From a virus, in IMG/VR virus record IMGVR_UViG_3300009481_004294: a stretch of DNA of 64,000 nt; one strand, given 5' to 3'. The notes under the pieces were generated by a model. That model saw only the letters and a program-made list of their open reading frames with translations, ran no database searches and had not been told where the DNA came from. The first letter of the stretch is position 1, and each line of letters opens with the position of its first letter. Shown here one piece after another: positions 35,594 to 41,824 of this stretch. A program made the position numbers and the translations under genes.

Positions 35594-36315
35594 TAAAAAC
35601 CTTAGACTATACAATCCCTTCTGAATGGAATAATAAAAATATTATTTCTAGTTTTATTGATTCGGGATTTTTAGTAATTAATCATCCCTTCATAGATATG
35701 AAAGAAGGTTTACTTTCTTTTAAAGAAAAACTTAAAATACAATTAAACGAATTAGAAGAAACTGAAGAGGGGTATAGAAAAATTATATTAAAAAATTGTG
35801 ATAATATTAAACAAAGATTTTTAAAAGTGGGATGTGAAATTTTATATGTTATTGAAGAATTTTTAAATGTTCCTCCAAATTCTATTGCAATGAAACATGC
35901 TGATTCTGATAATGCTTTGAGATTGGTTAAATATTATAAAGATCAGAAAGGATCAATAAGAGTAGGAGAACATTGTGATTTTGGTACTTTAACACTTGTT
36001 CATGTTTGTGATCCTGTAGAAGAATATGAAATATTTTATGATGATAAATGGAGAACAATAAATCATCCTAGTGATGATTTTTTGATTGTGAATATAGGTG
36101 ATTTTATGCAGATTTGGTCAGATAATAAATTAAAATCTACTCCGCATAGAATAACGAATAAAACAAAAAAAGAAAGACACAGTATGATTATGTTTATGGA
36201 TGCTGGTAATCATACTATTAAAGGAATTGATCATGCTACTTGGAATAAAAAAAGAATACAAATGGCTCATACAGGAGTAACATATTATCATGACAAAGGT
36301 ATCGTACAAATATAA
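35590..36315 (+). CDS. 2OG-Fe(II) oxygenase (IPNS/DIOX-like)
   Basis: HCDFGTLTL (HxD), VNIGD.MQIWSD..LKSTPHRI (distal His), RHS (RxS). Confidence 0.9.
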   Translation: MIKTLDYTIPSEWNNKNIISSFIDSGFLVINHPFIDMKEGLLSFKEKLKIQLNELEETEEGYRKIILKNCDNIKQRFLKVGCEILYVIEEFLNVPPNSIAMKHADSDNALRLVKYYKDQKGSIRVGEHCDFGTLTLVHVCDPVEEYEIFYDDKWRTINHPSDDFLIVNIGDFMQIWSDNKLKSTPHRITNKTKKERHSMIMFMDAGNHTIKGIDHATWNKKRIQMAHTGVTYYHDKGIVQI

Positions 36316-37048
36316 AGTATGGTTTTTAATATTAATGAATCATGTTCTAATGATAATAGGAATTTATTATGCTATAACAGAATCATCATATTATTTGTTT
36401 ATTGTACTGTTTATTGGACTTTTATTGAGTAAGTTGGGTGGAGAAATAGGAACTCATAGATATCTTTCTCACCGATCTTTTAAAACTGGACCCATAAGAA
36501 ATTTTATATTGCAAATTATGGGATTAATAAATTGTAATGGTTCACCTATGACTTGGGCTATATTGCATAGATATCATCATATGAATGCAGATAAGCCAGA
36601 AGAACCCCATTCTCCAAATATAATACCATGGTGGAAGTGCTGGTTGACTTTGTGGAATCCTATATCTCCTAATCCAAAAGAGTATATGGATTTATTGAAA
36701 GATCCATTAGTTAAAAACATACACAAATATTATTTTTATATGATAATATTGATGTTTGGAATATTATATTTGTTAGACTGGAGATTACTTGTATTTTTAG
36801 TTTGTATTCCTTCTGTAATAACCTTTCATGGATCAACTTTATTAATAAATACTATTTCTCATAAATGGGGATATCGTAATTTTGATACTGATGATAATAG
36901 TAGAAATAATACGTGGATTAATTTTTTAATATGGGGAGGGGGCTTACATAATAATCATCACGCTTATCCTGAAAGATATAATGAAAAAGTAACAGATAAC
37001 GAAAGGGATCCTTGTGGCTGGATTATTGAAAAATTTTTTAAAATATAG
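36290..37048 (+). CDS. Membrane fatty-acid desaturase 1 (delta-9/DesC-like family)
   Basis: His boxes HRYLSH / HRYHH / HNNHH with hydrophobic TM segments. Confidence 0.92.
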   Translation: MTKVSYKYKVWFLILMNHVLMIIGIYYAITESSYYLFIVLFIGLLLSKLGGEIGTHRYLSHRSFKTGPIRNFILQIMGLINCNGSPMTWAILHRYHHMNADKPEEPHSPNIIPWWKCWLTLWNPISPNPKEYMDLLKDPLVKNIHKYYFYMIILMFGILYLLDWRLLVFLVCIPSVITFHGSTLLINTISHKWGYRNFDTDDNSRNNTWINFLIWGGGLHNNHHAYPERYNEKVTDNERDPCGWIIEKFFKI

Positions 37049-37808
37049 TAGTACTTGGCATACTCATTTAGGATTTCAAATATTATTTCATATTGTAGCG
37101 GCATTAGGAATTGTCTATAGTTCTTGGCATTGGTTATGGTTAAGTCTTATTGGAGTAATATTATTTCGACATATAGGGGGTGAAATAGGCGCCCATAGAT
37201 ATTATGCTCATAGAAGTTTTGAAGCAAAACCTTGGGCTCAAAAATTAATGATTATATGTGGACTTTTTTTATATCAAGGATCGCCATATTCTTTTATTCC
37301 AATTCATAGATTACATCATCAAAAATCAGATACAATTGATGATCCTCATTCTCCCCATTTTTTAAATTTTGTAAATGTGTATTTTCCTAGTGCGAACCAG
37401 TATTATCGTGAACCCGTGGATAAATCATATTTTGCAGATTTAATTAAAGATCCCGTTTTACAATTTTTACATAGAAATTATTTAATTATAGTAACTATAC
37501 CATTGATTATAACAGCATTAATAGATTGGAGAATACCTGTTTTTCTATTTGCTATTCCAGTTGTAATTACATTTCATTCTGCGGGATTGGGAAATACTAT
37601 AGGTCATTTATATGGATATAGAAATTTTGAAACAACTGATAAAAGTCAAAATTCTACATGGGTGAACATATTAACTTTAGGATCAGGATTACATAATAAT
37701 CATCATGCATATCCTGAAAGATATAATTATAAAATGACAAATAAATGGTATGAAAGAGATGATTTAAATGTTTTTTTAATCGAAAAATTATTAATGGAGA
37801 AAAAATGA
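37026..37808 (+). CDS. Membrane fatty-acid desaturase 2
   Basis: HRYYAH / HRLHH / HNNHH. TTG at 37026 gives MKNFLKYSSTW, which aligns with paralog 3 (MKIISKYNNTW); the track start is GTG 37014. Confidence 0.9.
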   Translation: MKNFLKYSSTWHTHLGFQILFHIVAALGIVYSSWHWLWLSLIGVILFRHIGGEIGAHRYYAHRSFEAKPWAQKLMIICGLFLYQGSPYSFIPIHRLHHQKSDTIDDPHSPHFLNFVNVYFPSANQYYREPVDKSYFADLIKDPVLQFLHRNYLIIVTIPLIITALIDWRIPVFLFAIPVVITFHSAGLGNTIGHLYGYRNFETTDKSQNSTWVNILTLGSGLHNNHHAYPERYNYKMTNKWYERDDLNVFLIEKLLMEKK

Positions 37809-40279: not shown

Positions 40280-41063
40280 CCTTAATAAATTATTTGTTAA
40301 AGATTTTCAAATTAGTATATTACAATATGTGTGGATTTATACCTTTCCTATCATATCTGTATTGGGAATAATATATTCGTCATGGCATTGGTTGTTTTTA
40401 ACATTAGTGGGTATAATTTTGTTTAAAGATATTGGAGGCGAAATAGGAGTCCATAGATACTGGACACATAATTCATTTAAAGCGAAACCTTGGGTACCAA
40501 AATTATTTTCAATTTGTACAATTTTATGCTATGCTGGTAGTCCTCTTACTTGGTCATATGTTCATAGACATCATCATGAGCATTCTGATACTGAAAAGGA
40601 TGTACACTCTCCCCACCACAGCAAATGGTATCATATCTGGAGAGGATATTGGGATTTTTCAAAAATAGAAAAGTTTGATCCTAGATTCGTAGCAGATTTG
40701 TTGAAAGATGAATCAATAAAATTTGCACATCGATATCATTTATTGATTCAAATATGCGTAATCATAATAACTGTGTCTATAGATTGGAGAATATTTGTAT
40801 TTTTATTTGCTCTTCCTAGTGCAATAACATTTTGGTTTGGATCTATAGCTGTTAATATGATGAGTCATTTGTGGGGATATCGTAATTTTGAAACACCTGA
40901 TAATTCAAAAAATAATATACTTGCTTGTATTCTTGTTTCTTCTGGAGGATTACAAAACAATCATCATTATAATCCTTCTTCATATAATTTTAAAATGTCA
41001 GATAGATGGTATGAACAAGATATGAAAAATGTGTTTCTTATTGAAAGATTTTTTAAAGCATGA
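40269..41063 (+). CDS. Membrane fatty-acid desaturase 6
   Basis: HRYWTH / HRHHH / QNNHH. Confidence 0.9.
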   Translation: MIDNLNKLFVKDFQISILQYVWIYTFPIISVLGIIYSSWHWLFLTLVGIILFKDIGGEIGVHRYWTHNSFKAKPWVPKLFSICTILCYAGSPLTWSYVHRHHHEHSDTEKDVHSPHHSKWYHIWRGYWDFSKIEKFDPRFVADLLKDESIKFAHRYHLLIQICVIIITVSIDWRIFVFLFALPSAITFWFGSIAVNMMSHLWGYRNFETPDNSKNNILACILVSSGGLQNNHHYNPSSYNFKMSDRWYEQDMKNVFLIERFFKA

Positions 41064-41824
41064 TTAATTATTATATTAAATCTAAGCGAACTCCCTATTT
41101 TTTCTTAATTAATTTAATTGCTCATTTAGCAATTATACCCGCAATTCTTTATGGCGAATGGTGGATGTGGATATTAAGTTTGATATGGTGGCAGTGGATA
41201 GGATGTACAGCATATACTACTGGGTATCATAGGTATTATACTCATAAAAGTTTTAAAGCACCGCTTTGGTATGATTATTATTTTAATTTTTTTTCTTTAT
41301 TTGGTAATCCAGGACCAGTTCTTATATGGAGCGGAACACATAAATTACACCACAAATATAGTGATACGGAATTAGATCCACATAGTCCTAAACATAAAGG
41401 ATTTTGGAATGTGTGGACAAGTTTTTGGGGAATGGGAGTGTTTACAATAGATCCTCCTACAAGAGAAGATTTAAAAGATTGGTTAGAAGAAACAAAAGAT
41501 CCTATTGCTAAATGGTTTTATGATAATTATCTTTCTTTAACAGTTATTATTATGATTGTATTGTTATTCATGGGTCCTTGGTTTTTTATATTTGGTTTTT
41601 GTATTCCTACATGTTTAATACTTCATGGTTCGGGTATTATTAATGCATTTACTCATAAGAATGGAAAACCAGAGAATAAAAATTTAGTGGCATTGATAAC
41701 CGCTGGAGAAGGATGGCATTTGAATCATCATGAAGATCCATCTAATTATACGACAAGAAAAGAGTCGTATAAATGGTGGCAAGTTGACTTAAATGGTATA
41801 TGGATCAATTTAATTAAAATATAG
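41060..41824 (+). CDS. Membrane fatty-acid desaturase 7 (most divergent, closest to the canonical GEGWHxNHH type)
   Basis: HRYYTH / HKLHH / AGEGWHLNHH. Confidence 0.92.
   Translation: MINYYIKSKRTPYFFLINLIAHLAIIPAILYGEWWMWILSLIWWQWIGCTAYTTGYHRYYTHKSFKAPLWYDYYFNFFSLFGNPGPVLIWSGTHKLHHKYSDTELDPHSPKHKGFWNVWTSFWGMGVFTIDPPTREDLKDWLEETKDPIAKWFYDNYLSLTVIIMIVLLFMGPWFFIFGFCIPTCLILHGSGIINAFTHKNGKPENKNLVALITAGEGWHLNHHEDPSNYTTRKESYKWWQVDLNGIWINLIKI

Follow-up and report, generated by a model that had tools for sequence, protein, structure and literature searches.

The window examined here is a stretch of 64,000 nucleotides from the IMG/VR virus record IMGVR_UViG_3300009481_004294, and its positions 36290-41824 are filled by seven consecutive open reading frames (ORFs) on the plus strand, designated D1 through D7. 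Their products are 252 to 288 amino acids in length and are predicted to be membrane desaturases. An initial annotation, made from the letters of the sequence, had described this region as seven tandem desaturase paralogs, and both the ORFs and the matches to Pfam and NCBIfam models confirm this description. Its account of the histidine boxes is also exact. Neither box 1 (HRYxxH) nor box 2 (HxxHH) varies among the seven copies. Box 3 takes the form HxNHH in four of them (HNNHH in D1, D2 and D5, HLNHH in D7), but it reads QNNHH in D3, D4 and D6. The genes are listed below, where types A, B and C refer to clades that are described in a later section.

36290-37048, plus strand: D1, type A desaturase; 252 amino acids; box 3 HNNHH; PF00487 at 1.6e-15; all ligands present
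37014-37808, plus strand: D2, type B desaturase; 264 amino acids; box 3 HNNHH; PF00487 at 2.4e-16
37805-38575, plus strand: D3, type B desaturase; 256 amino acids; box 3 QNNHH; AlphaFold2 (AF2) model with a predicted local distance difference test (pLDDT) value of 94.5
38572-39438, plus strand: D4, type B desaturase; 288 amino acids; box 3 QNNHH; basic insertion after box 2; AF2 pLDDT 92
39440-40279, plus strand: D5, type B desaturase; 279 amino acids; box 3 HNNHH; insertion after box 2; NCBIfam DesA_fam at 1.2e-15
40269-41063, plus strand: D6, type B desaturase; 264 amino acids; box 3 QNNHH; PF00487 at 1.8e-15
41060-41824, plus strand: D7, type C desaturase; 254 amino acids; box 3 HLNHH; PF00487 at 36.4 bits in a six-frame search, above the cut-off

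The Pfam FA_desaturase model (PF00487) matches D1 through D4 and D6 with E-values near 1e-15, and six of the seven copies exceed the cut-off when D7 is counted. D5 is the sole copy that fails this model and has no Pfam match, but it is recognized by the NCBIfam model DesA_fam and is 54% identical to D4. There are three 4-nucleotide overlaps of the ATGA or GTGA kind between adjacent genes, longer overlaps of 35 nucleotides (D1/D2) and 11 nucleotides (D5/D6), and a single gap of 1 nucleotide. Thus, the seven genes appear to be tightly coupled.

Source phage and integrity of the array

The phage from which the window derives is an uncultured, T4-like marine myovirus. All genes lie on one strand, and the G+C content is approximately 30%. 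The genes for the gp21 protease, the gp22 scaffold and the gp23 capsid protein are located at 45323-48622. By gp23, the nearest backbones are those of Pelagibacter and Methylophilales myophages (62-64% identity), with values of 64% for Pelagibacter phage HTVC008M and 63% for Methylophilales phage Melnitz. The backbone is therefore pelagimyophage-like and is not that of a cyanophage. The IMG/VR contig that serves as the source record is 76,873 bases long (about 77 kb), with an estimated completeness of 33%, and it is within this partial record that genes reported below as not found were sought. At some distance from the array, the interval 12816-22911 of the window holds two very long ORFs (1679 and 1576 amino acids) whose G+C content of 0.38-0.45 is markedly above that of the rest of the window.

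There are 20 metagenome runs, all marine or subsurface and drawn from at least six studies, that hold at least 75% of the sampled words of 34140-41824, although three of these may be the source sample itself. Among the listed runs that hold the stretch, none is on record as RNA. The full interval 34140-42800 is covered in four runs from three studies, wherein contigs bridge every gene junction, each piece carries between zero and five differences, and there are no indels. An assembly artefact was considered and is rejected because these junction-bridging contigs occur in independent runs and lack indels.

Scans of the sequence for σ70-type promoters and terminators gave a result no better than that for shuffled sequence. 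The T4 late-promoter motif is not more frequent than expected by chance, and it is absent from the plus strand of 23899-43733. The 96-nucleotide spacer that follows D7 (41825-41920) contains a short hairpin, CCAACA-GGG-TGTTGG, and one population variant carries four single-nucleotide polymorphisms (SNPs) there. A tRNA-like reading of 41851-41948 finds no support from ARAGORN, Rfam or folding (fold energy relative to shuffled sequence, z = -0.53).

Family, fold and predicted metal ligands

A sequence profile built from 80 relatives matches stearoyl-CoA desaturase 1 (SCD1) of mouse and human (4ymk, 4zyo) with an E-value of 4e-48. In this profile match, the His/Gln column of box 3 aligns to the first His of the SCD1 segment GEGFHNYHH, and the phage NSxGH motif aligns to SCD1 NSAAH. 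We take the aligned positions to be part of the shell of nine histidines and one water/Asn that surrounds the two metal ions of SCD1. Eight of the histidines show no variation across the 80 aligned sequences, including those of all seven copies, and the ninth ligand position is the one that alternates between His and Gln. The N-x3-H motif in the fourth transmembrane helix (TM4) likewise has an invariant His. Its Asn, which corresponds to the water-mediated ligand position in SCD1, is present in six of the seven copies and is replaced by His in D5.

A four-helix topology with two hydrophobic hairpins is predicted for all seven copies from hydropathy, and it is seen also in the helices of the AF2 models of D3 and D4, both of which are confident. 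When these models are compared by Foldseek with solved structures, SCD1 is the only protein matched, with template-modelling (TM) scores of 0.73-0.75 (4ymk, 6wf2, 4zyo). Among reviewed proteins, where TM scores range from 0.74 to 0.82, two kinds of acyl-lipid Δ9 desaturase, cyanobacterial DesC and plant ADS, score highest (0.80-0.82). The acyl-acyl carrier protein (acyl-ACP) acetylenases JamB and TtuB are close behind (0.74-0.80), and the Bombyx conjugase Q75PL7 belongs to the same fold family. These sequence and model comparisons assign D1 through D7 to the SCD/DesC-type 'first desaturase' family of integral-membrane, four-helix di-iron enzymes, with a corresponding predicted activity.

The initial annotation had associated the QxxHH box with front-end desaturases. 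However, no Cyt-b5 match is found in the 77-kb record, and each of the seven proteins consists of the desaturase domain alone. Front-end (Δ4/Δ5/Δ6) desaturases form a different branch of the superfamily and carry a fused cytochrome b5 domain, and what they have in common with the array is the Gln at the first position of box 3, a feature shared with D3, D4 and D6 only. Since the cytochrome b5 domain is lacking and the match is to SCD/DesC, the phage enzymes are not front-end desaturases and the proposed association does not hold.

There are also relatives (P0137, P0131, P0251 and P0252, of 520-700 amino acids) in which two desaturase domains are present in one chain. Of these, P0137, in which both sets of boxes are complete, is located alone on a contig that looks cellular. 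Such two-domain fusions hint weakly that desaturases encoded side by side may be able to function as physical pairs.

Ancestry and divergence of the seven copies

The relationships among the copies were examined with quick maximum likelihood trees from IQ-TREE, which were midpoint rooted and for which the support values are those of the Shimodaira-Hasegawa-like approximate likelihood ratio test (SH-aLRT) only. Type A comprises D1 together with its orthologues in four other phage architectures (L008, L012, L016 and L018), with support of 98-99. Type B, with support of 99, comprises D2, D3, D4, D5 and D6 as well as the B copies of the related phages, one per phage. Type C comprises D7 and its orthologues in L008, L016 and L018, with support of 100. 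By these trees, the composition of the array is one A, five B and one C, wherein type B has been expanded.

Identity between the copies ranges from 26 to 69% in protein and from 60 to 87% in DNA, which indicates that no copy is recent. We considered duplication in situ in the recent past, and the DNA identities cause us to reject it. Indeed, D1, D4 and D7 are nearer to orthologues elsewhere than to any other copy in the window. The identities are 63-64% for D4 with P0015 and P0121, 56-60% for D7 with the C copy of L008, and 52-54% for D1 with other A copies. D3 is about equally similar to P0002 (70-71%) and to D2 (69%), and D6 forms a deep lone branch within the type B clade.

The ratio of nonsynonymous to synonymous substitution rates (dN/dS) between orthologues is 0.10-0.45. 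For L016 versus L018, which provide the least saturated pairs, the values are 0.10 for type A, 0.19 for type B and 0.32 for type C. Moreover, all four of the population SNPs that fall within the desaturases are synonymous.

His or Gln in box 3

An exhaustive HMMER profile search, which served as an unbiased survey, gave 821 representatives at E <= 1e-30. The best 150 of these were scored, and among the 139 that could be scored there are approximately 133 with His and 6 with Gln at the first position of box 3. This tally indicates that His is the predominant state. The opposite impression, that Gln is common in bacterial acyl-CoA desaturases (70 with Gln versus 39 with His), is wrong, because exact seeding with five-residue words from a Q-type query recruits Q-type sequences.

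Even so, Gln has appeared on numerous occasions, with at least 13 changes on a 182-row tree, and at least four of these occur inside a 21-row type B clade. In the type B clade as it appears within the larger tree, Gln is present in 8 of 19 rows. D2, which has His, is sister to a Gln-bearing clade formed by the L008 B copy, P0007, P0008 and P0010. The nearest relatives of D3, which has Gln, are H-type B copies, and the closest relatives of D4, also with Gln, are P0015 (Gln) and P0121 (His). The codons involved are CAT versus CAG or CAA, so that one third-position change (CAY/CAR) separates the two states. The initial annotation had distinguished two kinds of third His box in the array. Given at least four flips inside type B and orthologues that differ in this residue, His and Gln do not mark a pair of ancient functional classes.

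The Q-type box 3 occurs in several clades of the SCD-type family and is not diagnostic of front-end desaturases. Some Q-type relatives stand alone (P0042, and P0087 beside a TetR regulator), and others are located in polyyne-type clusters (P0114 and P0110). The TM4 Asn is retained in the phage Q copies but is Gly in the polyyne Q clade. From these comparisons, the His/Gln dimorphism appears real and concentrated in the expanded type B, with a suggestive precedent in polyyne clusters. The toggle probably tunes the chemistry or the regioselectivity of individual copies. It also constitutes a natural experiment in membrane desaturase enzymology that bears on an old question, namely the effect of Gln replacing a ligand His on the di-iron site. 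The pair D2 and D3, which are paralogues with 69% identity, and several pairs of orthologues differ in having His or Gln.

An insertion after box 2 in D4 and D5

The initial annotation had pointed out that the segment after box 2 varies in length and sequence, and the variation is evident in the spacing between boxes 2 and 3, which is 126-130 residues in D1, D2, D3, D6 and D7 but 157 residues in D4 and 148 in D5. The additional 20-30 residues are located directly after box 2, on the cytosolic side. There are 15-16 Lys and Arg residues in the post-box 2 segment of D4 and D5 (16 in D4), compared with 5-9 in the other copies. The AF2 model of D4 places one or two extra helices here, at 139-153 and 156-162, with moderate confidence. 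The counterpart of this region in SCD1 is the head-group binding cap, and one study ascribes the choice of head group by enzymes of this family to charged residues there (Li et al. 2016, PMC5037126). In D4 and D5, the inserted basic helices probably alter recognition of the carrier or head group.

Neighbouring genes and related phages

Immediately upstream of the array are six genes for which a role in building or modifying an acyl or polyketide chain might be expected, and one further cassette-associated gene follows D7. These are as follows.

31997-32413, plus strand: acyl carrier protein (ACP); PP-binding at 2.2e-7 and NCBIfam ACP models; Ser attachment motif LDIDSI
32400-33524, plus strand: TauD/TfdA-family oxygenase-like protein; PF02668 at 8.4e-11; orthologue in the L016 and L018 cassettes (68-74% identical)
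33526-34143, plus strand: short FabG-like reductase, or ketoreductase (KR); phrog_3142 at 3.7e-7; kept in all cassettes
34140-35168, plus strand: type III polyketide synthase (PKS); N and C domains of Chal_sti_synt; Cys/His/Asn signature GLACNGG, CHPGG and GNMSATS
35165-35593, plus strand: AcpS-type phosphopantetheinyl transferase (PPTase); PF01648 at 4.2e-11
35590-36315, plus strand: 2-oxoglutarate (2OG)-Fe(II) oxygenase; PF03171 at 6.1e-17; HxD...H triad
41921-42775, plus strand: cassette-associated protein of 284 amino acids; a 66%-identical orthologue is located directly after a B-type desaturase in L016

The TauD-family protein has W-H-S-N-E where its family has the iron-binding HxD, and the acidic ligand may be missing or shifted. 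For the 284-amino acid protein, domain and PHROGs searches found no family. Atlas searches with the ORFs at 41921-42775 and 31030-32013 returned nothing usable, and PHROGs gave the FabG-like match only.

Related contigs from Tara Oceans and IMG/VR carry the same core in shuffled order and with only two or three desaturases. The ACP, KR, PKS and PPTase genes and desaturases of types A and B are found in all five architectures, and in every locus long enough to include gp21 they lie upstream of it. Relatives with two desaturases have types A and B along with a Rieske-like oxygenase. Relatives with three have types A, B and C along with a FabA-like dehydratase or extra oxygenases. The desaturases are interleaved with cassette genes in L008, where one lies between the PKS and the FabA-like dehydratase, and in L016. 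These arrangements suggest that the desaturases are a variable tailoring arm, while ACP, KR, type III PKS and PPTase form a fixed core alongside oxygenases of the 2OG and TauD types.

The backbone of L018 is 90-100% identical to that of the window (43774-45970 versus L018:16345-18421), but its cassette proteins are only 52-77% identical and there are three desaturases rather than seven. A near-identical backbone next to a diverged cassette with a different number of desaturases suggests that the cassette is a recombining, fast-exchanging mosaic island.

A search for related loci with D2 alone gave none, and one with the PKS or its profile gave four IMG/VR loci only. Among 50,697 phage records, megablast found no match and tblastn found three weak matches only (27-29% identity).

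Short desaturases of the same family also occur in a different type of oxygenase-rich island. The marine contigs L029 (63 kb) and L022/L023 and Pelagibacter phage Mosig (L001) have one to three of them without ACP or PKS, and their neighbours are Asp/Arg hydroxylases, PhyH/TauD oxygenases and radical-SAM genes. A variant of the cassette is seen in a 6-kb marine contig (L020:1185-4317), wherein the D4/D5-like P0012 is followed by a 369-amino acid protein with a PTS-HPr match, a TauD-like protein and a Rieske-type oxygenase.

Possible functions of the array

There are seven intact, long-diverged desaturase genes beside the phage's own ACP and PKS, which suggests that the phage probably makes a heavily unsaturated special lipid during infection rather than merely adjusting the fluidity of the host membrane. 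We modestly favour a reading in which the seven enzymes desaturate one chain, either linked to the carrier or derived from the PKS, by cooperating or by acting in succession. In such a pathway, the phage would produce its own holo-ACP, and the PKS and KR would build or extend a long alkyl chain. The desaturases would reside in the inner membrane, where a host electron carrier would feed them, and they might act successively or as a complex on one chain that is either tethered to ACP or already part of the PKS product. The outcome would be a multiply unsaturated and possibly acetylenic lipid, to which the 2OG/TauD-type enzymes could add further oxidation.

Several observations weigh against this reading. 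The closest characterised structural matches are the acyl-lipid Δ9 desaturases DesC and ADS, which are slightly ahead of JamB and TtuB, and the phage clade is phylogenetically apart from the polyyne clade. Related phages manage with two or three copies, and some have no Q copy. Genes for an AMP-ligase, thioesterase, FabA-type dehydratase, ferredoxin, rubredoxin, cytochrome b5 or Rieske protein were not found in the roughly 33%-complete 77-kb record. A predicted complex between D2 and the ACP domain has a score of 0.04, which counts neither for nor against binding.

One alternative is that the array remodels the host membrane. Perhaps the copies are acyl-lipid desaturases like those of cyanophages, each serving another head group, sn position or chain length, and have no tie to ACP or PKS. 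The structural matches to DesC and ADS would fit this, as would the precedents of single phage desaturases, which are known auxiliary metabolic genes with Δ9/C16 activity (PMC5776448), and of a stearoyl-CoA desaturase noted in freshwater pelagimyophages (PMC7029224). The lack of an acyl-AMP ligase, a thioesterase and an electron carrier in the record is also easier to accommodate. However, seven diverged copies would be unprecedented for a function in membrane fluidity. Likewise, the linkage to ACP, KR, PKS and PPTase in every one of the five architectures, sometimes with interleaved genes, and the near absence of matches among phage records speak against it, and we regard remodelling as unlikely. 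A somewhat smaller chance is given to mixed chemistry, wherein some copies, possibly the Q copies or D4 and D5, no longer desaturate but hydroxylate, epoxidise, conjugate or make triple bonds. Acetylenases and a conjugase do belong to this fold family, HXXHH and QXXHH enzymes are combined in polyyne clusters (PMC9828172), and Gln, although rare at large, is present in three of the seven copies. Nevertheless, a residue that differs between orthologues and has flipped repeatedly within type B accords poorly with a permanent switch of reaction type, the TM4 Asn that is Gly in the polyyne Q clade is still present in the phage Q copies, and reaction outcome in this family is not predictable from sequence alone.

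The extra B copies might instead be redundant, either as dosage copies or as decaying relics, given that close relatives have only two or three desaturases and that D5 falls below the Pfam threshold. This explanation is largely refuted and retains very little probability. All seven copies are full length with every invariant ligand, there are no frameshifts or indels in the four independent runs, the SNPs are synonymous, orthologue dN/dS values are well below 1, and identities of 26-69% are far too low for dosage. Since the copies are old, separately maintained and under purifying selection, dosage and decay are in practice excluded. The initial annotation had likewise argued for neofunctionalised paralogs, which would install successive double or triple bonds at different positions, rather than simple dosage. 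The part of this view that concerns dosage is upheld by the identities, the separate orthologues, the purifying selection and the conserved ACP/PPTase/PKS cassette, whereas a division by His and Gln into old functional classes is not. It had further stated that this family has varied chemistry, which agrees with the presence of JamB and TtuB in the same protein family and with the pairing of H-type and Q-type enzymes in polyyne-type clusters (PMC9828172).

Returning to the desaturation of one carrier-linked chain by the seven enzymes, a more extended proposal can be formulated. A lytic marine phage might bring about the production of an alkyl-polyketide lipid, polyunsaturated or acetylenic, with up to seven cooperating desaturases on its own carrier, in which the His/Gln toggle sets the type or position of the bond for each copy. 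Such a product might serve as a toxin or as a signal, or might become attached as a lipid to the virion or the host surface, and these options are suggested by the location of the cassette in a hypervariable, fibre-rich island of the structural region. We regard this extended proposal as unlikely.

Comparison with known systems

The four helices of the phage enzymes and their box 1, box 2, TM4 N-x3-H and box 3 motifs align with those of SCD1 (PDB 4YMK, 4ZYO and 6WF2). The phage proteins differ from SCD1 in that they lack an N-terminal extension, share only about 26% identity with it, have Gln for the first box 3 His in three copies, and carry a basic helix on the cytosolic cap in D4 and D5.

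The bacterial polyyne clusters cay and pgn encode an acyl-AMP ligase, a dedicated ACP, a triad of desaturases, a thioesterase and a rubredoxin, and the three desaturases, which have HXXHH and QXXHH boxes, cooperate on a chain bound to the ACP (Kim, Ishida & Hertweck 2022, PMC9828172). There are two polyyne-type loci among those compared here that carry a ligase, an H-type and a Q-type desaturase, an ACP, a third desaturase, and a hydrolase or P450, with a rubredoxin in one of the two. In the polyyne-type locus L025, two adjacent SCD-like desaturases, one with His and one with Gln, lie beside an ACP. Thus, polyyne clusters resemble the phage cassette in placing SCD/JamB-like membrane desaturases beside a dedicated ACP and in pairing H-type with Q-type enzymes. 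However, the ligase, thioesterase, rubredoxin and Δ12-like third desaturase were not found in the partial phage record. The phage instead has a type III PKS, a KR and its own PPTase, and all seven of its copies are SCD-type. The phage desaturases are also shorter (252-288 versus 293-337 amino acids) and more numerous (seven versus three). A tree that includes polyyne-type desaturases, a comparison that the initial annotation had called for, places the L025 H/Q pair in a clade of its own, apart from the phage clade. Judged by sequence, the phage set is a radiation independent of the polyyne enzymes.

JamB and TtuB (UniProt Q6E7K8 and C5BK13) share the fold and family of the phage enzymes (TM scores 0.74-0.80, 26-27% identity) and likewise have an adjacent dedicated ACP. 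Each is a single enzyme in a three-gene cassette of ligase, desaturase and ACP that yields a terminal alkyne on C6 or C10 chains. In contrast, the phage set comprises several copies with a predicted activity, and no ligase accompanies them in the partial record.

The nearest viral precedents are the cyanophage enzymes vFAD-I and vFAD-II, which are DesC-like and act at Δ9 on C16 chains of lipids. Each is described as a lone auxiliary gene, with no mention of tandem copies or an ACP (Roitman et al. 2018, PMC5776448). These enzymes resemble the phage copies in being members of the Δ9/first-desaturase family in marine T4-like myoviruses. By that description, the array differs from them in having seven copies tied to an ACP/PKS cassette on a backbone that is not that of a cyanophage. 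Literature searches gave no description of a phage cassette with ACP, PKS and multiple desaturases, or of QNNHH. Phage desaturases have so far been known as single auxiliary genes that adjust host membrane lipids, and carrier-protein sets with multiple desaturases have so far been known only from bacterial polyyne and alkyne pathways. If the proposed pathway is real, then lytic phages of an abundant marine type can carry full specialised-lipid pathways.

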